From Thermosynechococcus sp. WC_1 (GTDB taxonomy: Bacteria > Cyanobacteriota > Cyanobacteriia > Thermosynechococcales > Thermosynechococcaceae): a DNA stretch of 24,000 nt. Below are positions 1 to 16,934 of this stretch, piece by piece (position 1 is the stretch's first letter; the number at the start of each line of letters is the position of its first letter). The position numbers and the translations under genes are program-made. The stretch covers positions 1 to 24,000 of the forward strand of contig JAGVDA010000013.1 in NCBI GenBank assembly GCA_020058975.1, in the 5' to 3' direction. The notes under the pieces are model-generated. The model searched no databases. It worked only from the letters and a program-made list of their open reading frames with translations, and was not told the DNA's origin.

Positions 1-2283
1 AATTTTAGGATTCTTAAAAAACTCACTAACAAAGAAGCTGTGTAGCTTTTTATACTCCGAGGCTGTTTCTGTATTTACGCCTTGGTACGAAAGGTCAGCC
101 AGAGCTTGAATTAAAAAGCCTTCAAAGGAACCCCAAACATTAATTGAATCTGGGTCATCTGGATCAAATGGGACGAGATAGCGCTGATCGACGCCATCAA
201 AAATATTTGAACTATCCCTTTTTGGGTTGAAATAAGCAGCGTTAGGCTCAAATTCAGCCCAAAGGGAAAAAGAGCCAGGTCCTTGAGCTGGAGCGCCATC
301 AATAATAATGCCTCTCGCCCCTTGCATAAGGGCATTCTTTGTTATTCCATGCGCAAACTTTGACTTCCCTGACCCCTTTTCTCCAAGTAGAATATAGTTT
401 ATATGAGATTCTTGCCCATCCCAGGAAATTTTTGCAAGCGGGTCAAGGCAGATAGGCTGTTTCCGCCTAGTAACCATTTGATATCCTTTTCTGTGCAAAG
501 GTCGCTCACGGACCAAAGGGATAATCCCTACAACAGCAGAAGCCTCATCTTGAATCCTTCTTTCAAAAGAGCAAAACAAAGTTACAGGCTTCACCGTTTT
601 TTGTAACATTCGGTGAGCGGTAAGGGATGGTAGTGACGTAAAAAAAAGTTGATCGCAATATTCGCGTTCACGGGAAACAATATTCCCACTAAAAGAAGAT
701 TGCTCCGTAAATGAGGAGACCGCATCATTTAACTGAGGGACGGTAGATCTGTAAATCATGGCAACCCATGCACACTTGATAGAAGTAGCCCCTTTTTGAA
801 GAGATCGGGCCACATCAATTGCCTCTTCCCTCATCACATCTGAGGCAACATCCATCGTCCCTCGCTTAAGATGACCGTCTTTTTTTGAACTTTCAGTTTT
901 CACCTTCCAACTTGCAGCTCTGTGAGCATCCCCAGGGGGAACGGTTGAAAACTGAACCAATATTCTTGTATTAAAGACGGATGGGTTGTTGATTGCTTCA
1001 GACCCATAAAAAAGTTGTTCTCTTCGCTTGTTTGAGTACCAAATTCGCTTAGGGAACTTAGTCATTACGCAAGTCGCTAAATATTCACTCCTCCCTGCTA
1101 GGTGAACAAAATCCTTGGCAGGACTAATTCCGCCAGAATCAAATAGAATGCTAGCCAGCAATCTAGCATCCTTAGGGGGATGAATCACCATTCCATCTTC
1201 TGAAATTGTAATGAGATGATCTATTTCAGGGGCAGTTCCTTTGTTGAACTCTCCCCAAGCAAGCTGAAACGATTCGTTTAAAGAGAATGGGCGAACAGCA
1301 AGCTCTAGCTTTTCTTCAAGCATTCTTTTCCATTTTTTGAACCCTTGATGGTAGGCAATAGTCAAACGATCGCAAAGATCCTTTTCTGTATCTTCATTAG
1401 ATTTCAAGGATTCAAATCTTTGTTCAAGGAAGGCTTGAATGCGATCGCCAAGCTCCATCTCATCTTCCAAAAAGCCTAAGCCTGATAGGTTAGTCGTAGC
1501 GTAAATCCTTAAATGGCGTGGCGCTATTCGATGCTGGCAAGCTAAATCTTTGGTCCGCTCGTCAATGCCGTCAAGGATAAATAAATCCTCTTTTGACATC
1601 TCACGCGCGGCTCGCATTGCTTTTGTTGCCGCTAATTGCTGAACAATATTGACGCGAATTTCTGCATCAATTGTAATAACCTCAGAAGATGCGCTGCGAG
1701 AGAAGTCGGCCAACCCATCTTCAACTTTTTTCGAGATCGCGTTATATTGGTCATCTGAAAGAGAGTAAGAAATTCCTTCGCATTCAAAGACCCAAACAAC
1801 AACTAATTCATTAAGAGGGTTTTTTTGAAGGTAAGCGCCAACGTCTAAATCATCAAAGTTAAATTGAAGCATCTTGGCGAGATGGATTTTATCCTCAATG
1901 GGGTAGACCTTTTCGCGATCGCCCTTTAGGTTAGTTCTTACTTGCGAGCCAATCATAGGCTTAATATCTTGAGTACTTTTAAGCTGCGACGGAGAGAAGG
2001 TTTGATTTGAAACAATAAGCTTAGGGGGATTATGCATCTTGCCAATTTTTTTCCAAGGTCTTCCGTAGAAAAAAATCAGATAAGGGACTAGAAGCGTAAA
2101 TCCAATGACTGAATACAGAAAAGCATCTTGTGGGTGCCCCGACATTGAAAGTCCGGCAAAAAGGAAAAGGAGGGGAAGGAATATAACGACCAAGGGGGGG
2201 ATTAGCGCAACAGGGACAATCACTGACTGCCCCTGTGCGTAAGAAGCCTTGAACGAAATTTCGCTTACGGCTTCTTGGGTCAT
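1..2283 (-). CDS. VirB4/TrbE-family type IV secretion ATPase fused to an N-terminal VirB3-like membrane segment; C-terminus lies beyond the left window edge
   Basis: Absent from the ORF track because it has no in-window stop. Hand translation from ATG at 2283 (MTQEAVSEISFKASYAQGQSVIVPVALIPPLVVIFLPLLFLFAGLS...) stayed open to position 1 (761 codons). Two hydrophobic helices at the N-terminus. Walker A GEKGSGKS is encoded at 361-384. ATGA start/stop overlap with the upstream pilin-like ORF (2280-2283). Gene order is pilin then B3/B4. Confidence 0.7.
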   Translation of the reverse strand, partial: MTQEAVSEISFKASYAQGQSVIVPVALIPPLVVIFLPLLFLFAGLSMSGHPQDAFLYSVIGFTLLVPYLIFFYGRPWKKIGKMHNPPKLIVSNQTFSPSQLKSTQDIKPMIGSQVRTNLKGDREKVYPIEDKIHLAKMLQFNFDDLDVGAYLQKNPLNELVVVWVFECEGISYSLSDDQYNAISKKVEDGLADFSRSASSEVITIDAEIRVNIVQQLAATKAMRAAREMSKEDLFILDGIDERTKDLACQHRIAPRHLRIYATTNLSGLGFLEDEMELGDRIQAFLEQRFESLKSNEDTEKDLCDRLTIAYHQGFKKWKRMLEEKLELAVRPFSLNESFQLAWGEFNKGTAPEIDHLITISEDGMVIHPPKDARLLASILFDSGGISPAKDFVHLAGRSEYLATCVMTKFPKRIWYSNKRREQLFYGSEAINNPSVFNTRILVQFSTVPPGDAHRAASWKVKTESSKKDGHLKRGTMDVASDVMREEAIDVARSLQKGATSIKCAWVAMIYRSTVPQLNDAVSSFTEQSSFSGNIVSREREYCDQLFFTSLPSLTAHRMLQKTVKPVTLFCSFERRIQDEASAVVGIIPLVRERPLHRKGYQMVTRRKQPICLDPLAKISWDGQESHINYILLGEKGSGKSKFAHGITKNALMQGARGIIIDGAPAQGPGSFSLWAEFEPNAAYFNPKRDSSNIFDGVDQRYLVPFDPDDPDSINVWGSFEGFLIQALADLSYQGVNTETASEYKKLHSFFVSEFFKNPKI

Positions 2284-7363: not shown

Positions 7364-7737
7364 GCAGAAATCCCAAAATATTTTTCAACTACGGCGATCG
7401 CCTCATCCGCCCCCTTGCAAACCACGGCAAGAAAGCCTTGCCCATTTAGGTCTGCAATCCATTTTCTTTGGACAGGAGTAGGTTGGCCCTTTGCGGACTT
7501 CATCTCAATCCACAGCCCATGATAGCCGCCAATGGCAACAGGGATACAGACATCGGGAATTCCAGACTTGACCCCCTCGTTTTTTAATTTTCGGGCCACT
7601 CCAATATGGCGATGGCCACCGTTTGGGATAGCAAAAGCGAGAGAAAGGCGATCGTCCTGGAGGGAAGCAAGCTCTAGCCAGTCGAAAAAAGCAACTTGTT
7701 CGTCGTGCTCAGATTGGTTCAAGCTCTTTCCCTCCAA
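7360..7737 (-). CDS. VRR-NUC domain nuclease (PD-(D/E)xK fold)
   Basis: SEHDEQVAFFDWL...AIPNGG...GIPDVCIPV...LWIEMKSAKGQPTPVQRKWIADL...VVCKG matches the VRR-NUC pattern (E, PD, ExK). Confidence 0.8.
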   Translation of the reverse strand: MEGKSLNQSEHDEQVAFFDWLELASLQDDRLSLAFAIPNGGHRHIGVARKLKNEGVKSGIPDVCIPVAIGGYHGLWIEMKSAKGQPTPVQRKWIADLNGQGFLAVVCKGADEAIAVVEKYFGISA

Positions 7738-9578
7738 GCACCAATAGAAGTAGGAGGATTAATGTTTTCAAATTTCGTATTTTCAGCATCAAATAGAAGC
7801 TTTACCATTCCAGTTGGACCATTACGATGCTTAACAATTGACACTTCAGTGACACCTCTATTTGGCGTATCTTTAATATAGTAGTCTTCCCGATAGAGCA
7901 TCATAATCATGTCAGCATCCTGCTCAATAGCACCAGACTCTCGAAGATCTGACATGATTGGTCGCTTGTCTCTACGAGACTCTACACCCCTAGAAAGCTG
8001 AGAAAGGGCAATTATTGGAACATTAAACTCTCTTGCCAAAGCCTTAAGGCCACGACTAATTTTGGATATTTCAGTATTACGATTTTCCGAACTTCCATTG
8101 CACTTCATAAGCTGAAGGTAATCAATCCCAATCATAGAAATGCTACCTTTCCTCTCAATAACCTCACTCGTCTTTGCGTGGATATCTTCAATCGTCAAAA
8201 CTGGATTATCATCAATCCCAATTTCAACCTCACTAAGAGCCGCTGTCGCAAGATTAACCGCATCCCACTCATGGCTTGAAATCCTTCCAGTTCTAAGGCG
8301 CTGGCTAGAAATTCGCGATTCCATTGAAAGAAGTCTATAGTTTAATTGAGGAGCAGACATTTCCAGACTAAATACTAGGCAAGGCTTTTTGTAAGTTTCT
8401 GCTATATTCCTAGTGATACATAAAGCCAGAGCGGTTTTACCCATTGATGGACGCGCGGCCAAAACAATTAGGTCGGAAGGTTGAAACCCTTGGGTCATTG
8501 CATCAAGTTCATAAAAACCTGATTGATAGCCTGGAAGAGTTTTAGACTCGGACCTAGATGTAATTTGATCGTAAATTGAAAGACTTAGGTCCGACAAAAA
8601 TACCATTGAGGATGGAGGTGGTGGCGTCAAAGCATCTATCAATTTATCAAGAGTTTTGCCTCGAACACCATACTCAGTACCAACTTCCTGCTCAAGCAAA
8701 GTTCGCTGAAAGAGGTCTAACTCAGCTTCAACCTGCTCAACTTTTTTCCTTAGATCTGTTGCTGATTTTTTGGGTTTTCCCTCGTTGGTTTCTATTGCCC
8801 CTAAGATATCTTCAACCGTTGCCCCGTCTTGGATCCAATCTTCTATATCTAATCCGCCTTGGTCTGGAACGCAGGACCAAATTGGGGACTTAGGGTACAC
8901 CTTCAAAAGCTTTGCGGATGGGAAAAGCTTTTGGACATCATCCATATGCTCTAAGCCAGGTTTGTCTCTGTCTGGGCATAGAATTAGATCGGCCCCGCTC
9001 AAGTCCGCCTTGTAACCCTTCCCAAAGCTATGAAGCTTCTTTGATCCGCCAAGAAAAGTTGTTGAGGCTATGCCAATTGTCCAAAGTGCGTCTGCGGAGG
9101 TTTCCCCCTCAACAACAATAATTTGTTGTTTATTCGCGATCGCCTCTCTCACCTCTGCATATCGATAGATAGGAATTACAGGCTTTATTTTGTCAGGAAC
9201 ACCTGAGACCCAGCCATCACCTTCCCAGTGGTATTGGTAGAACTGCTTTTGAGATCCTTGTTTGACCTTCTCAACCTTTAAGAGTTTAGTGCCATCACGA
9301 TTTGGGTAAAAGAACTGTGATCGGGTTTCTCCAGCCCGTAATTTTCGCCCCTTAAGCTGACCCTTCTCCCCTCTTAGATCATTAACAAAGACGCCCCATA
9401 GCCCATCCTTGCTCGTTGCATGAAACCTATAACCATTGATCGGATTTTTAGGGTCGGTAGGGTGAGTGTGGCAAAAAACGAGGTTACCTTGTTCCTTCAC
9501 TCGGCAGTCTTGGTCAGAAATGCGATCGCAGACAGGACAAGGATTATTCTTCCCTGAACGAGTAAATCTATCCATCAT
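7719..9578 (-). CDS. bifunctional primase/helicase: zinc-binding N-terminus, Toprim primase domain, DnaB-like helicase C-terminal domain
   Basis: CPVCD...CHTH zinc motif. Toprim VVEGETSADAL and CPDRDKPG. DnaB-type Walker A ARPSMGKTALAL, Walker B IGIDYLQLM, and ALSQLSRGVESR. Start trimmed to MMDRF (ATG 9578 or 9575) directly behind GGAGG. The track's 41-codon extension reads through the IscB element end. Confidence 0.85.
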   Translation of the reverse strand: MMDRFTRSGKNNPCPVCDRISDQDCRVKEQGNLVFCHTHPTDPKNPINGYRFHATSKDGLWGVFVNDLRGEKGQLKGRKLRAGETRSQFFYPNRDGTKLLKVEKVKQGSQKQFYQYHWEGDGWVSGVPDKIKPVIPIYRYAEVREAIANKQQIIVVEGETSADALWTIGIASTTFLGGSKKLHSFGKGYKADLSGADLILCPDRDKPGLEHMDDVQKLFPSAKLLKVYPKSPIWSCVPDQGGLDIEDWIQDGATVEDILGAIETNEGKPKKSATDLRKKVEQVEAELDLFQRTLLEQEVGTEYGVRGKTLDKLIDALTPPPPSSMVFLSDLSLSIYDQITSRSESKTLPGYQSGFYELDAMTQGFQPSDLIVLAARPSMGKTALALCITRNIAETYKKPCLVFSLEMSAPQLNYRLLSMESRISSQRLRTGRISSHEWDAVNLATAALSEVEIGIDDNPVLTIEDIHAKTSEVIERKGSISMIGIDYLQLMKCNGSSENRNTEISKISRGLKALAREFNVPIIALSQLSRGVESRRDKRPIMSDLRESGAIEQDADMIMMLYREDYYIKDTPNRGVTEVSIVKHRNGPTGMVKLLFDAENTKFENINPPTSIGAWRERA

Positions 9579-9655
9579 TTCCTCCGAGGGACTCCCGCCA
9601 GAGTCGTAATCGACTTGGCGGAGAGGGGGATAGGAGCGGCGCATTAGCGCCAATG

Positions 9656-10933
9656 TCAAAGTGCATATCCGTAGCCATCCTTTTTGTGAATGAGAGTGCA
9701 ATATTTATAGGAAATCGAATCAATTAATCCAGTCTTATCTGAGATATTGAAACTACCAACCGACCGAACAGCAACCCGACCGAGATAAGTCCCGATCTTC
9801 TTGCCTTTAGTCACAATCGCCCGAACAATATCTCCGGTTTGAAAACCTTTAACAAATGGATTCTTTGGCACATACCGAGATGGGAATCCATACTTATCAG
9901 TCCGACATTGTTGCCTTGAGCCGTGCCCCGTGGCCTTGATTTTGAGTGGTTGACTTGTTAGTACCTCCAAGCTTTCAACATCACCGACACAGGCAGCATC
10001 AAGCCAATGGGCTTTAGGCAGTCCTAGTCGAGTTCGGTTGAACTTGGTTTGTCCCCCTGACCCAGTAGAAACCGGAAGGCCCGTTTCTTTGAGTCGATTG
10101 AACAATGTCCAACGAGTCGAGTTGACTGCCGCTGCATCTTTGAGAGGTCTTTTTGCTTGTGCCTGAATCTGTTTGAGTAGGTCAGGGTTTTTGCCCAAGA
10201 ATTGAGCAATATCCTGAGTGCCTTTCTTTAGATTGCAAGGTTCACAAGCTAGGCATAGATTAGAAATCCGATTAGACCCACCCTTAGACTTCGGGTGAAT
10301 GTGTTCGATCTGAAGTGGGACATTTTCAACCTTGCAATAGGTGCATTGTCGATTCCACTTATTGAGCAAATATTCACGCACTTCGTAGCCCGCTAACTCA
10401 CCTTGTTGGTACTCAGTGCCTGATATCTCAGGGTTTTCAATCTGTTGCAAATCAAACCGAACAAGCTCTTGAGCAATGGAACCAATCGGACACAGTTTAA
10501 TGAACCGATTTACCCAGGTCATCGTGGTTTCAACCCGATGGGCTAGGCTTGGAGCCAGCCAACCTTCAGGTCTTGCTCGGTTGAGGAACCGCGCCGGACG
10601 ATGCCGAGTATGTCGATTCCGTCTACCGCGCCGCAGGGCACGACGGGATTCCAGGGACCGTTTGATGGCTGCGCCACGGTGAGTTAGTTCAGCACCAAAA
10701 ATAACTTGATTGCCTTGTAAGATGGCAAAGCCAGTCGTTTTTGAGCCTGGGTCTATTTTGAGAGTGCAAGGCTCAACCGGACCGTTGACCTCCTTTTTGA
10801 GGATGATTGTTCTGGGATATTCACGAAAAACAGCAGCTTTCCCAGTATCACAAAGCCGATCGGCTACGGATGATTTGCAGGGAGCCAATCGCCTTCGGTT
10901 TGTATCTAGAACGAGAATATAGTTAGTAGACAT
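9656..10933 (-). CDS. iscB: IscB RNA-guided nuclease (RuvC-HNH, Cas9 ancestor family), apparently intact
   Basis: N-terminal LVLDTNRRRLAPC (PLMP-like). RuvC-I KIDPGSKTTGFAI. Arg-rich bridge RRALRRGRRNRHTRHRPARF. RuvC-II IAQELVRFD. HNH CTYC...QIEHIHPKSKGGSNRISNLCLACEPCN. RuvC-III HWLDAAC. Start set at ATG 10933 (MSTNY); the track begins at an upstream TTG. Confidence 0.85.
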   Translation of the reverse strand: MSTNYILVLDTNRRRLAPCKSSVADRLCDTGKAAVFREYPRTIILKKEVNGPVEPCTLKIDPGSKTTGFAILQGNQVIFGAELTHRGAAIKRSLESRRALRRGRRNRHTRHRPARFLNRARPEGWLAPSLAHRVETTMTWVNRFIKLCPIGSIAQELVRFDLQQIENPEISGTEYQQGELAGYEVREYLLNKWNRQCTYCKVENVPLQIEHIHPKSKGGSNRISNLCLACEPCNLKKGTQDIAQFLGKNPDLLKQIQAQAKRPLKDAAAVNSTRWTLFNRLKETGLPVSTGSGGQTKFNRTRLGLPKAHWLDAACVGDVESLEVLTSQPLKIKATGHGSRQQCRTDKYGFPSRYVPKNPFVKGFQTGDIVRAIVTKGKKIGTYLGRVAVRSVGSFNISDKTGLIDSISYKYCTLIHKKDGYGYAL

Positions 10934-11201
10934 TGTGGTGTCTAAACTCCTTACGGTTAACGTTTGCTTCAAGATTGTTATCGGTCGGTACTATCCAAAA
11001 CACACTGTCTTAACCCAATTAAAACTGTTTAATGATTTGGTTACAGAGCCTAGGACTAGCGAGATACAAGGGTATCAATCCTAGGGTGTGAACTTTAACG
11101 CTTACCGATAACGGCTGCTAGACCTCTCTAGCTCTCTGGTCAACTTCGGGCTTTTTAAGCCCCCGCTATATCGGTATTCCGATTAGCGGTGGGTTATTGA
11201 C
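10934..11201 (-). ncRNA. candidate omegaRNA scaffold of the IscB element
   Basis: 268 nt with no ORF, immediately 5' of iscB and reaching the element's left end. Hairpins read by eye at 11163-11189, 11148-11162 and 11049-11085. Location matches published IscB loci. No covariance model or expression data available. Confidence 0.5.
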
Positions 11202-11347
11202 TGTTGTTGAGGTATAAAGCAGATAAGTGGGTAACAGTGGAATAATTGACTTTTGCCAAGGTAGAAATCATATAGAGAGCTTGATAACGACCTACTGGGT
11301 CGCAAATCCCATTAACCTGCTCTATTGCGTCTAACAATGCCGTCAAG

Positions 11348-12331
11348 TCAGGCTGCTGCATAATCTGGCTGCAAACCTCGTAAGAAAATCAGGTACTCAG
11401 CTTGCTCTTGAAATGTTAGGTCTGAGATAACACGAGCCCCAGAGGGGACATTGAACCCAGCCACAATAACGCCATTCAACTTAAGCCTGTTTATCTGCTC
11501 AACCAAACCCTTGTTAATAGCCTCTGGGCTTTCTGCTTCAGCCTTGAACCGTTGCCATTGGGCCAAAGAAATGTCTAATCTTTCTGGGCTAAATTCTGCT
11601 CTTGCTAACCAATCTTCAGCCTGCCACCTTTCGGGAGGGGTCTCTTTGAAGCTTGGAGTACTAGGCAGATACTTTTCCACAAGAAAAGCAATAAACCCTT
11701 TATCAAAATCTCTCCGCCTTGATGTGATTTGCCACGGGTGGAGCTTTCCTTGGTTCTTGAACATGGCTTCGATTTTTTCTGGGCCAGACAATCCCCCCTT
11801 AAAAGAAAAATTATCCGTGTTGCTTGAGTAAAGAGTTTGTTCTTTATTTGAATATAGATCTGAAGAAGAGTTGAGAGGAGCCTGAAAGTCAATCCCTGTG
11901 CTTGTTTCGGGCATTGATTTTCGCAAATCTGGGACTGGCGTTTCACTAAGTGCATTCTCAGTCCCACTAAGTGGGATTTTAGTTTCGTTTAGTGGGACAG
12001 GATCTTCAGTAAGTGGAACACCATCACCACCAGGTGGGACTGAAAATGATGAGGGAACATTGCGGGTTTTTACATCTACGGCCCCGATTATTTTTTCATC
12101 AAGCAAATCTTGCTCAATTAGTTTTGCCTTCGCCCTGTAGAATGCCGAACGGCTCAATCCCCATTCTTGACAAAAATCATCAACTTTTTCAATCCGGTGG
12201 ACCCAGCCATGCTGTTTAAGGGAGGAAAGCAGCAAAAACAGGTATCCCGATGGTCTTAGATGGCCTGACTCAAAAAGAAATCTAACCTGGTCAGGAGCAA
12301 GACGAACGTGAGAAGTTTCACCCTTTTTCAT
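11348..12331 (-). CDS. putative replication initiator / wHTH DNA-binding protein (327 aa) with internal heptad-repeat linker
   Basis: N-terminal HTH (FCQEWGLSRSAFYRAKAKLIEQDLL). Central VPxxxxx heptads are encoded by 21-bp DNA repeats. Sits next to the primase-helicase. Initiator function is inferred, not recognised by homology. Confidence 0.55.
   Translation of the reverse strand: MKKGETSHVRLAPDQVRFLFESGHLRPSGYLFLLLSSLKQHGWVHRIEKVDDFCQEWGLSRSAFYRAKAKLIEQDLLDEKIIGAVDVKTRNVPSSFSVPPGGDGVPLTEDPVPLNETKIPLSGTENALSETPVPDLRKSMPETSTGIDFQAPLNSSSDLYSNKEQTLYSSNTDNFSFKGGLSGPEKIEAMFKNQGKLHPWQITSRRRDFDKGFIAFLVEKYLPSTPSFKETPPERWQAEDWLARAEFSPERLDISLAQWQRFKAEAESPEAINKGLVEQINRLKLNGVIVAGFNVPSGARVISDLTFQEQAEYLIFLRGLQPDYAAA
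11928..12040. repeat. six 21-bp-phased direct repeats (core AGTGGGAC, plus strand), iteron candidates inside the initiator-like CDS
   Basis: Cores start at 11928 TCTGGGAC, 11949 AGTGCATT, 11970 AGTGGGAT, 11991 AGTGGGAC, 12012 AGTGGAAC and 12033 GGTGGGAC, with exactly 21-nt spacing. Confidence 0.6.
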
Positions 12332-12419
12332 TTTTTTTAAGCCTTACGTAAAAAGTTAATAACCGAAAACGAAACCGCGATCGCAGAACCTAACACCAAA
12401 ATTTTGTTCACCGATTTTC

Positions 12420-12653
12420 CTCCGAGAGACCCCTGGCTTTAGACATGGGGGGGGATAGGAGCGGCGCATTAGCGCCAATGTCAAAGTGCATATCCGTAGC
12501 CATCCTTTTTGTTGACAAGAGTGCAGTATTTATAGCTAATGCCCTGAATTAATCCAGTTTTGTCGGAGATATTAAAACTACCTGTCAAGCGGACAGCAAC
12601 CCGTCCAATATAGGTGCCAATTTTCTTGCCTTTAGTAGCGGTGGGTTATTGAC
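12420..12653 (-). mobile_element. internally deleted (MITE-like) derivative of a diverged IscB element: right-end hairpin module, the last ~60 codons of iscB, and 17 nt of the left end
   Basis: 12450-12512 is 63/63 identical to 9625-9687. 12513-12636 is 95/124 identical to 9688-9811. 12637-12653 is identical to 11185-11201. The remnant frame still reads TKGKKIGTYIGRVAVRLTGSFNISDKTGLIQGISYKYCTLVNKKDGYGYAL*. Confidence 0.7.
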
Positions 12654-15643: not shown

Positions 15644-15853
15644 TTAGGCCGCTACAGAATCAAGCCTAGGTAATGGCTCACCGTAAAGATCCATATACGT
15701 TTGGGCAACAGTATCAACGATCCTTTGTGAATTTTCTTGCTCTTTAAGAGCCTGAGTGACGGCACTCTGAGTTACCTGAAGGCTTCGAGACAAGGAAGCA
15801 AGGCTCGTCCCCTTTTTTCGCAAATTACACTTAATGACTTCAATGTCGTACAT
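15644..15853 (-). CDS. Ner/Nlp-like HTH regulator (69 aa)
   Basis: IKCNLRKKGTSLASLSRSLQVTQSAVTQALKE resembles the Mu Ner / Nlp family HTH. Divergent from an XRE-type gene. Confidence 0.65.
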   Translation of the reverse strand: MYDIEVIKCNLRKKGTSLASLSRSLQVTQSAVTQALKEQENSQRIVDTVAQTYMDLYGEPLPRLDSVAA

Positions 15854-15865
15854 CTGTTAACCTGA

Positions 15866-15919
15866 GCCTTAAACTATTTAGGCTAAATCAAATCTAATCC
15901 ATTTTTCGTAGACTGTCAA
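15866..15919 (-). promoter_or_regulatory. candidate promoter (TTGACA-17-TAGATT, minus strand) with an imperfect 18-bp inverted repeat just downstream
   Basis: -35 at 15914-15919 and -10 at 15891-15896 (17-nt spacer counted). Inverted repeat GCCTTAAAC/TATTTAGGC at 15866-15883. Confidence 0.45.
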
Positions 15920-15940
15920 CACTTTTGGGAATAAAGTTTT

Positions 15941-16381
15941 ATGAACCCCGCGATCGCCATAGCAACTAAAGGTTTGCCTACGGATTGTCCCTGGTTACCC
16001 CCGTACCCTCAGATTGGTGCTCGCTTTCGCAGCGCACAAGGAGATCGGCCAGACTTGAAGATGGCTAAGATAATCGGAGTATCGCCGACTACGATTTCTC
16101 GTGTCTGTAAGGGAGAGCAAGGGATTAATGATGCAATGCTTGGCTATTACTGCGCGGTTGAAGGCCACGACGCCCACGGGCTTCTTTTTGGGCATGGCTT
16201 TGAACAACCTCCTGAGACACTTGCAACCTTGCTTCCTAAATTACTGGATCTTCCAACGTCGGACAGGCTGGCCGTGCTGGCGGCTGTTGCAAACAGCGTT
16301 CAAGGTGGATGCCCGTGTACTGATTCTCCAACTCCGTCTTCAGTCTCTCAACAATCCTATTCAGCTCCTGACAATAACTAG
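15941..16381 (+). CDS. XRE-type HTH protein (146 aa), repressor candidate
   Basis: MAKIIGVSPTTISRVCKGEQGIN HTH. Divergent from the Ner-like gene. Its 3' third overlaps a minus-strand ORF in antisense. Confidence 0.6.
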   Translation: MNPAIAIATKGLPTDCPWLPPYPQIGARFRSAQGDRPDLKMAKIIGVSPTTISRVCKGEQGINDAMLGYYCAVEGHDAHGLLFGHGFEQPPETLATLLPKLLDLPTSDRLAVLAAVANSVQGGCPCTDSPTPSSVSQQSYSAPDNN

Positions 16382-16436
16382 ATTCGGCGTATTCAGTAAG
16401 TTCGCTAAGAATCTTGTCTAAAACAGAGTTGGTCAC
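16236..16436 (-). CDS. possible 66-aa helical protein, antisense to the 3' end of 15941..16381
   Basis: GTG start with GAGGGA 5 nt upstream. Plausible helical sequence. Conflicts with the plus-strand ORF. Confidence 0.3.
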   Translation of the reverse strand: MTNSVLDKILSELTEYAESSYCQELNRIVERLKTELENQYTGIHLERCLQQPPARPACPTLEDPVI

Positions 16437-16534
16437 TGAGTTCCCTCACTTATGTCGAAATTGTGGCGATCGCCGCTATTTTTGATTATCAGCATTTTCG
16501 GACAAAAAAATACAGGTTATCAAAACCTTAATAA

Positions 16535-16594
16535 TTCCCAGATCTGGGAACACCCTTCGTATCTGTTGACACGGGGGGTTTTTGTTGCTAGCAT
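16535..16594 (+). promoter_or_regulatory. perfect 16-bp palindrome TTCCCAGATCTGGGAA (16535-16550) abutting a near-consensus promoter TTGACA-17-TAGCAT (16566-16594)
   Basis: Read directly; spacer counted as 17 nt. Lies upstream of the XRE-dnaN operon. Confidence 0.5.
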
Positions 16595-16625
16595 TGAGCT
16601 TGAATTGAATATTCACCACAAATAG

Positions 16626-16934
16626 ATGGAAACAATAGGGGGAATCTTTCTCCGAGTACGGGCTGAACATGGGCTCAGTCAAAAAGTGATCGCTGCTGAA
16701 CTAGGGATATCTGTTTCCTACGTCTCCCATTTGGAAAGTGGAAAATTTTTGTCAATTAGCGATGAATTGCTCCAAAAATTTTCAGCAAGGTTTGGGCTCC
16801 ACTCAGATGAGCTGAACTTTGCTTGCGATCGTATGCCTCAGTGGATGTGGGATGCGATTATGTCAGATCCTAGGTTATTTCGAGATTTGTGCAGGATGGA
16901 TAGGAAAAAGTTGGAGGCATTTTTGGCAACGTGA
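16626..16934 (+). CDS. XRE-family HTH transcriptional regulator (102 aa)
   Basis: LRVRAEHGLSQKVIAAELGISVSYVSHLESGK is a canonical HTH_3 pattern. Confidence 0.8.
   Translation: METIGGIFLRVRAEHGLSQKVIAAELGISVSYVSHLESGKFLSISDELLQKFSARFGLHSDELNFACDRMPQWMWDAIMSDPRLFRDLCRMDRKKLEAFLAT

Follow-up and report, generated by a model that had tools for sequence, protein, structure and literature searches.

IscB is the transposon-borne ancestor of Cas9. ISC transposons insert at the target sites N|ATGA, GT|GG and GT|GA (Kapitonov et al. 2016, PMC4810608). The guide of an IscB system comes from the sequence that flanks the omegaRNA scaffold on its 5' side; by convention the omegaRNA side is called the right end and the target-adjacent motif (TAM) abuts the left end, as in GstIscB, whose TAM is TTCAT, 5' of the left end, or ATGAA on the iscB strand (Meers 2023, bioRxiv 10.1101/2023.03.14.532601). 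The same preprint finds a tnpA gene near only ~1.5% of iscB genes and reports that IscB elements are retained in the same orientation as the gene upstream of them, since transcription of the guide has to begin outside the element. For GstIscB, homing is an established mechanism (Meers 2023); PMC13565253 reviews it. Here, we describe an apparently intact IscB/omegaRNA element of this known type, recognized from its sequence, in a 24,000-nucleotide stretch of Thermosynechococcus sp. WC_1 (contig JAGVDA010000013.1, positions 1 to 24,000; hereafter the window). With a probability of about 0.9, we read it as a non-autonomous ISC element (IS200/IS605 superfamily) of 1626 bp that encodes an intact IscB and its omegaRNA, inserted without target duplication in a phage-like replication operon, where it would be expected to home.

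The nuclease gene is a minus-strand open reading frame (ORF) of 425 amino acids (9656..10933; ATG at 10933, stop at 9658..9656). On the NCBIfam equivalog of guided IscB (NF040563), the protein scores 450.9 bits (cutoff 175), with residues 6-317 aligned to positions 1-314 of the 314-position model. Residues 6-178 match the full length of Pfam RRXRR (PF14239, 223.9 bits), corresponding to the N-terminal PLMP domain and the Arg-rich bridge helix (residues ~97-122). The RuvC domain is split by an HNH segment (residues 184-247 in Pfam and PADLOC), and three HNH models are also matched. HMMER alignments place the catalytic residues RuvC-I D61, RuvC-II E156, HNH H211 and RuvC-III H309 and D312 on D61, E193, H247, H340 and D343 of OgeuIscB; the Cys pairs of the HNH zinc site (C197/C200 and C230/C233) and N225/N234 are present as well. 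The IscB hallmarks that a preliminary description had read from the letters of the 425-residue protein are thus all found, with the catalytic residues intact rather than substituted.

Across an alignment of 21 homologs from related loci, the catalytic residues are kept in 20, and residues 318-425, the C-terminal domain, share the motifs GFQTGDIV, GKK.G.Y.GR and DGY.Y. In the iscB gene of L036, a Chloroflexaceae metagenome-assembled genome (MAG), a gap or substitutions affect the RuvC-I Asp, the RuvC-II Glu (Lys), a Cys of the first pair (Asn) and the RuvC-III His (Arg), and this gene is probably an inactivated copy. Sequence searches of the PDB returned solely IscB, IsrB and compact Cas9 chains (TbaIscB at 3e-29, OgeuIscB at 7e-25). 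An AlphaFold2 model was used only for the ranking of fold matches, since it was of poor quality, with a mean predicted local distance difference test (pLDDT) score of 59.6 and the N-terminal 85 residues at 78-93; from this low-confidence model, the ten best Foldseek matches in the PDB were all IscB/IsrB complexes. Residues 318-425 lie outside both the HMM match and the PDB sequence matches and were modeled at pLDDT below 50. A protein search returned more than 120 clusters at least 74% identical to the window IscB, mostly cyanobacterial and many of them from Chroococcidiopsis, Microcoleus, Phormidesmis and Microseira, and the best match in a scan of GTDB genomes was 73% identical.

Upstream of iscB lies a 268-nt stretch devoid of ORFs (10934..11201, minus strand), which the preliminary description had taken for a structured region. 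It contains a match to the full HEARO model of Rfam (RF02033, model positions 1-211; today this family is recognized as the omegaRNA of IscB) at 11201..10957, with 110.5 bits against a gathering score of 83 (E 2.4e-22); the match is directly upstream of iscB on the same strand and ends 24 nt before its ATG. RNAalifold on 12 related copies detected compensatory changes in 21 of 35 predicted pairs. This omegaRNA scaffold also forms the transposon's right end, whose terminus GTCAATAACCCACCGC... is at 11201. Both the reading frame and the RNA region first described are therefore real, with the strand corrected: everything lies on the minus strand.

Comparison with insertion-free relatives and with a second, deleted copy delimits the element to 1626 bp, from 11201 to 9576 on the minus strand (GTCAAT…GGAGGAAATG). 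The terminus on the omegaRNA side is fixed by the point at which the full copy and the deleted one part, exactly 5' of GTCAAT (at 11201 and 12653). For the other end, we used primase-helicase orthologs that lack the insertion, found on five metagenome contigs of the Joint Genome Institute (JGI; L067-L071, 76% identical) and on a 43.7-kb contig (L066, 66%). None of these contigs carries IscB, and in all of them a small ORF of 56 aa overlaps the primase-helicase start directly. The corresponding small ORF of the window is 81% identical over 47 aa to that of L067. When 11201..9576 is removed in silico, the flanks join as …CTCAACAACA|ATGGATAGATTT, colinear with …CAGCAAGACG|ATGGCTGAATTT in L067, and the restored junction reads ...AACAACA|ATGGATAG; the left terminus at 9576 was set by this colinearity. 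The restored small ORF ends in ALYLNNNG*, its stop overlapping the primase start, and its L067 counterpart ends in ALYQQDDG*.

No duplicated target bases appear in the empty-site reconstruction against L067 and L066, and both element ends carry hairpins without terminal inverted repeats. The left end (9576..9655, minus strand) comprises a first hairpin GGCGC-TAAT-GCGCC (9651..9638), a second one (~9625..9592) and then TCCCTC-GGAGG-AAATG; the left ends of relatives have the same two-hairpin architecture with different stem sequences in hairpin 2. The element went in beside ATGG, a known type of ISC target/TAM, where the stop of the 55-aa ORF (11194..11361, minus strand) and the primase-helicase ATG overlap, and the last two codons and the stop of this conserved small ORF are now provided by the 5' end of the omegaRNA (..NN|SQ*). 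The span of 9582-11201 given in the preliminary description thus keeps its right end, while its left end moves to 9576 on the strength of the empty-site comparison. Of the two neighbors it had named, the primase-helicase gene is the right one, and the other is the 55-aa ORF rather than the 327-aa initiator-like gene.

Several points weigh against our reading. The HEARO score of 110 bits falls under the 135-165 bits of most relatives, because the window copy has two insertions in peripheral stems. Since the three-dimensional model is poor (pLDDT 59.6), it is sequence conservation that argues for a C-terminal TAM-interacting domain, and the putative TAM is read from the flanks. The left terminus carries an uncertainty of ~2 nt, as the insertion-free sequences used for comparison are orthologs of 66-76% identity and not the same replicon. 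Finally, the replicon itself may be a phage, a plasmid or a chromosomal island, since the 24 kb hold no structural or integrase genes. The element could be an inactive remnant whose ORF looks intact and whose omegaRNA or TAM-interacting domain, for example, is damaged. The lower RNA score would fit such decay, which does occur in the clade, as the catalytic-position substitutions of L036 attest, and the copy next door is clearly dead. Yet the ORF is full length with every catalytic and zinc-binding residue, the C-terminal motifs are conserved across the 21 homologs, the RNA match spans the whole model above the curated threshold and both ends are intact, and we therefore consider a remnant unlikely.

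Close relatives of the element point to mobility. The window IscB belongs to a 90% identity cluster of ten members, four of which were inspected (L073-L076). Their proteins are ~89-90% identical to the window IscB and their neighbors are unrelated; the flanks diverge at GTCA… on one side and right before ATGG or ATGA on the other, so that with the window five close copies have ATGG or ATGA adjoining the left end. One MAG carries four copies (L024, L027, L029 and L037) that end in …CCGCATTT, followed by AGATGG, AGGTGG or GGGATGG. Such flanks fit both the published ISC targets and the GstIscB TAM. Copies in four other contexts indicate a recently mobile family, and a chromosomal accA-SDR-folE operon is one context of closely related copies. 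Neither a Y1 transposase (PF01797) nor a TnpB domain was found in the 69 window ORFs scanned, in line with the absence of tnpA noticed in the preliminary description. The element is therefore non-autonomous, like ~98% of iscB elements (Meers 2023), and a missing tnpA does not exclude membership in the ISC group: by their sequences, the ends, the site-specific target and the copies in multiple contexts all place it in the ISC / IS200-IS605 superfamily.

Two observations concern the relatives themselves. Locus L074 carries at 1-365 a TnpB gene (OrfB_IS605 / Cas12f1-like_TNB) 5.6 kb upstream of its close IscB copy, and IS605-family partners therefore co-occur in that genome. In addition, for the IscBs P0128 (in the 90% cluster of the window protein), P0144 (85%) and P0160 (80% identical to the window protein), the longest contig is in each case 30,073 bp, and the JGI contig Ga0673001_0000450 (30,073 bp, of which L073 is the first 7.5 kb) may carry three ISC paralogs.

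The preliminary description had called the element non-autonomous or domesticated, and of these two terms only the first is supported, given the ~89-90% identical copies in four other contexts. Domestication would mean that the phage-like replicon has co-opted IscB to attack or exclude the host or rival replicons instead of carrying it as a selfish passenger, an idea that draws on the position of the element inside the replication operon of a mobile-looking replicon, on the lack of a nearby tnpA, on reports of IscB genes in viral genomes and on two IMG/VR contigs with relatives 74% and 56% identical. However, its guide is mere flanking sequence, as in every mobile copy, and so targets the empty site of the replicon itself. 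Both transposon ends have been retained, near-identical copies sit in unrelated contexts including the chromosomal operon, orthologous replicons lack it and a decayed sibling lies 1.2 kb away, all of which fits a selfish insertion sequence; homing against sibling replicons is moreover already part of our explanation. Co-option is thus less probable still than a remnant.

That the protein is an ordinary HNH restriction endonuclease, as suggested by the name '5-methylcytosine-specific restriction endonuclease McrA' that JGI gives to members of its cluster and by the PADLOC and Pfam matches to residues 184-247, is refuted by the HEARO, RRXRR and NF040563 matches, since this HNH segment of just ~60 residues is embedded in a RuvC fold, residues 6-317 score 451 bits on the IscB equivalog, the gene is preceded by a HEARO RNA and NCBI names relatives 74-87% identical 'RNA-guided endonuclease IscB'. 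Membership in type II CRISPR-Cas9 systems was also rejected: no repeat array was found in the window, no Cas domain was found among the window ORFs scanned and the Cas9d model scores 45 bits on the window IscB, under its cutoff of 375.

If the element works as other IscB systems do, its guide can be read from the flank. The predicted guide segment lies outside the element at 11202..11217 on the minus strand (5'-TTATACCTCAACAACA-3', with an assumed length of 16 nt) and is also the 3' end of the 55-aa ORF. At the other end, the TAM-like motif ATGGAT (9570..9575, minus strand) abuts the left end, and translation of the primase-helicase starts at the ATG of this motif. The predicted 16-mer is unique in the window. 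A 13/16 match at 9102-9117 on the plus strand, in the primase-helicase gene, is perfect over the 3'-proximal 11 nt and is followed by ATAATT; it is probably not a self-target, because ATAATT adjoins it instead of ATGG. Several TAM-proximal positions of the window guide are mismatched in the L067 lineage, which is therefore probably not a target either.

Because the guide lies outside the element, the omegaRNA would have to come from read-through of the upstream operon, and a pattern scan just upstream of the omegaRNA on the minus strand found no promoter-like site. The first ~16 nt of such a transcript would be flanking DNA. IscB and this omegaRNA would then cut copies of the replicon that carry the uninterrupted junction (TTATACCTCAACAACA followed by ATGG), which might arise by TnpA-mediated excision or might sit in a co-resident sibling genome without the element. 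Recombinational repair after cleavage could copy the element back, in restorative or non-restorative homing, and mobilization to new sites would require a Y1 TnpA acting in trans. In a multi-copy phage-like replicon, the element would thus behave in a manner equivalent to free-standing homing endonucleases. Its tolerance may have three causes: the element shares the orientation of the operon, it disrupts no coding sequence, with changes only to the last residues of the small ORF, and its left-end GGAGG comes 5 nt before the primase-helicase ATG.

The preliminary description had considered this an unusual location to tolerate an insertion, a view that does not hold: the location is not unusual for the IscB family, because the element is co-oriented with the upstream gene, lies where two genes meet and adjoins an ATGR start codon, all of which are family preferences. 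Both copies in the window are co-oriented with their upstream genes. The left end finishes in …TCCCTCGGAGGAAATG, which brings a Shine-Dalgarno (SD)-like GGAGG (9585..9581) to 5 nt before the primase-helicase ATG and adds an in-frame ATG. The element's own SD-like motif would thereby replace the translational coupling that was lost at the stop/start overlap.

We found this arrangement to recur among relatives. All five close copies have an SD-like GAGG or GGAG within their end, and the ATG that adjoins the terminus is called as the start of a same-strand gene, the genes being 618, 136, 39, at least 117 and 147 aa long. More broadly, at 12 of 28 independent sites there is an SD-like motif, and the ATG directly after the left end opens an ORF of at least 100 aa, with ORFs of 889, 564, 534 and 490 aa among them; P0202 and P0207 each represent one locus seen in many samples, not multiple insertion sites. 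As background, such an SD-like motif and ORF accompany only 2.3% of the RTGR sites counted across ~200 kb from these loci, which gives a binomial P of 5e-13, or 2e-6 under a conservative null of 9%. SD-like GGAGG or GAGG lies 5-9 nt from the terminus in the window (9576-9589, minus strand) and in L014, L018, L019, L021, L022, L036, L038 and L073-L077. The downstream genes are mutually unrelated, and the SD-like motif therefore belongs to the element. The pattern is not universal, as L084 has no such motif and about half of the sites have no downstream gene. We also considered a second gene of the element beginning after the SD-like motif and ATG, and rejected it: the downstream ORFs are mutually unrelated and the sequences diverge right after ATGR.

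The pattern may be an adaptation, or it may be only what purifying selection has left of insertions at ATGR sites. Tentatively, and at somewhat less than even odds, we propose that the left end of this clade is an outward-facing translation-initiation cassette and that its ATGR target is often a start codon. Such an element could slot between coupled genes of an operon, essential phage replication genes among them, without polar damage and borrow the transcription of the operon for its guide RNA; in a phage-like replicon, it might serve as an RNA-guided homing cassette against element-free siblings.

The second copy (~12412..12653, minus strand, the left boundary being approximate) is internally deleted and corresponds to the second, deleted copy of the preliminary description. 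It consists of 18 nt of the right end (12653..12636), the last 51 codons of iscB and a left end. Positions 12636-12653 are identical to the omegaRNA 5' end at 11184-11201 (18/18) and positions 12450-12636 are 84% identical to 9625-9811; the deletion equals 9812..11183 of the full copy. This relic starts 12 nt past the stop of an upstream 96-aa ORF and is followed by GTGAAC at its other end, where the GTGA likewise fits the published targets. Its hairpin 2 is of a different subtype, like that of Microcoleus L015. Since this subtype differs and the overall identity to the full copy is 84%, the relic is a separate, older insertion of a related ISC, at a different gene junction, and not a duplication. 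With the right-end hairpin, the RNA scaffold and the nuclease gone, it should be inert. A spacer of ~80 nt (12332-12411, minus strand) separates its left end from the ATG of the 327-aa gene and holds a 25-codon ORF with a GTG start that ends 5 nt before that ATG; in L067, which is free of insertions, the two corresponding flanking genes overlap by 1 nt, so that this spacer is extra DNA.

The replication module in which the preliminary description had located the insertion is well supported by its genes. Directly 3' of the element is a primase / DnaB-type helicase (7719..9575, minus strand; Pfam DnaB_C at 334 bits, PHROG primase/helicase families), and other minus-strand neighbors encode a Dam-type methylase and a VRR-NUC nuclease. 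The plus strand carries genes for helix-turn-helix (HTH) regulators, a beta clamp, a NUDIX protein and two single-stranded DNA-binding proteins (SSBs). The 327-aa initiator-like gene (11348..12331, minus strand) has no family match, and the C-terminal half of its product is 34% identical to a 306-aa HTH_36 protein at the same position in L067. The conserved ~55-aa ORF (…DLTALL.AIEQ.N…GRYQAL.MISTLA.VNY…LSALY…) is found at 11194-11361 (minus strand) in the window, at 1711-1881 in L067 and at 1-56 in L066, and always overlaps the HTH_36-type gene before it as well as the start of the primase-helicase gene. No Pfam or PHROG family matches it, and its product could be a helicase-loader-like or coupling peptide.

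Two other regions of the window stand out. A stop-free frame of at least 679 codons runs from an ATG at 2037 off the window start (1-2037, minus strand), which is why the ORF list lacks it; its only matches are weak ones, P-loop/NACHT-like (E 0.004) and PADLOC mad8, and it has none in PHROG. At 15644-16934, divergent small HTH genes of 69 aa (minus strand) and 146 and 102 aa (plus strand) part the leftward replication operon from the rightward beta-clamp/NUDIX/SSB operon, in a layout like that of a phage cI/cro-type switch.

No structural, integrase or relaxase genes were found in the 24 kb window, nor were tRNA genes or further Rfam families. Searches of the whole window by megablast against phage and plasmid collections gave no match, exact-protein look-ups of IscB and the primase-helicase retrieved no record, a scan of IMG/VR with the 327-aa protein returned nothing and one with the primase-helicase returned only relatives of at most 55% identity. 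The 66% relative L066 carries phage-like genes (VanY, Acb2/Tad1 and DUF5131). The 29 HIP1 octamers (GCGATCGC) of the window, at 45% GC, suggest a prolonged stay in a cyanobacterial host rich in HIP1. As the closest IscBs and DnaB domains also come from cyanobacteria, the cyanobacterial affiliation given in the preliminary description is plausible. The label of a cyanobacterial phage-like mobile replicon is reasonable but not proven.

As an IscB, the element adds little, given that the family, its RNA, the target motif, the lack of tnpA and the orientation bias have all been published and close relatives number in the hundreds. Its value lies in the base-level resolution, through insertion-free orthologs, of an IscB insertion at the stop/start overlap of essential replication genes. 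With a native guide and a TAM both predicted, homing or gene drive in a phage-like replicon becomes straightforward to test, and the recurrent SD-like motif of the left end, together with a target that is a start codon, could explain how elements persist inside operons. The recurrence of this arrangement in the ISC clade is modestly new: start codons go unmentioned in Kapitonov 2016 (PMC4810608), and searching the literature for an SD-like end combined with a start-codon target returned nothing relevant.

Among known systems, OgeuIscB/omegaRNA (PDB 7xht, 7utn and 8csz) provides the best fold matches in the PDB and shares the domain order, the catalytic residues and the upstream omegaRNA. It differs in its sequence (~20% identity) and its length (496 aa, the window's 425-aa protein being ~70 residues shorter), and the C-terminal domains are not alignable by sequence. 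Its TAM is NWRRNA, against the ATGG/ATGA type predicted here. GstIscB in ISGst (Meers 2023, 10.1101/2023.03.14.532601) is likewise encoded by a non-autonomous IS605-type element, with an omegaRNA bounded by the right end, a guide outside the element, a TAM abutting the left end and co-orientation with the upstream gene, as in the window. It resides in another host phylum and on a chromosome, whereas the window element is flanked by ATGG in a phage-like replicon, and while restorative homing of the donor joint was demonstrated for GstIscB, our copy is known from its sequence.

With the ISC2 transposons (Kapitonov 2016, PMC4810608), the element shares the 5'-GTCA terminus, subterminal hairpins, the lack of target duplication and insertion right upstream of ATGA-like tetranucleotides; they too are mostly without tnpA, and they are common in cyanobacteria. 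Unlike ISC2 as published, the ATG of the window target is a functional start codon and the left end bears an SD-like motif. The free-standing homing endonuclease genes of T4, Seg and Mob (PMC13565253), likewise place a nuclease gene between conserved replication genes of a phage-like genome, and should likewise cleave the allele that lacks the insertion in a co-resident relative and spread through its repair. In contrast to these proteins, which recognize the target themselves, the window element would do so through a guide RNA and a TAM, and it has the ends of a transposon.

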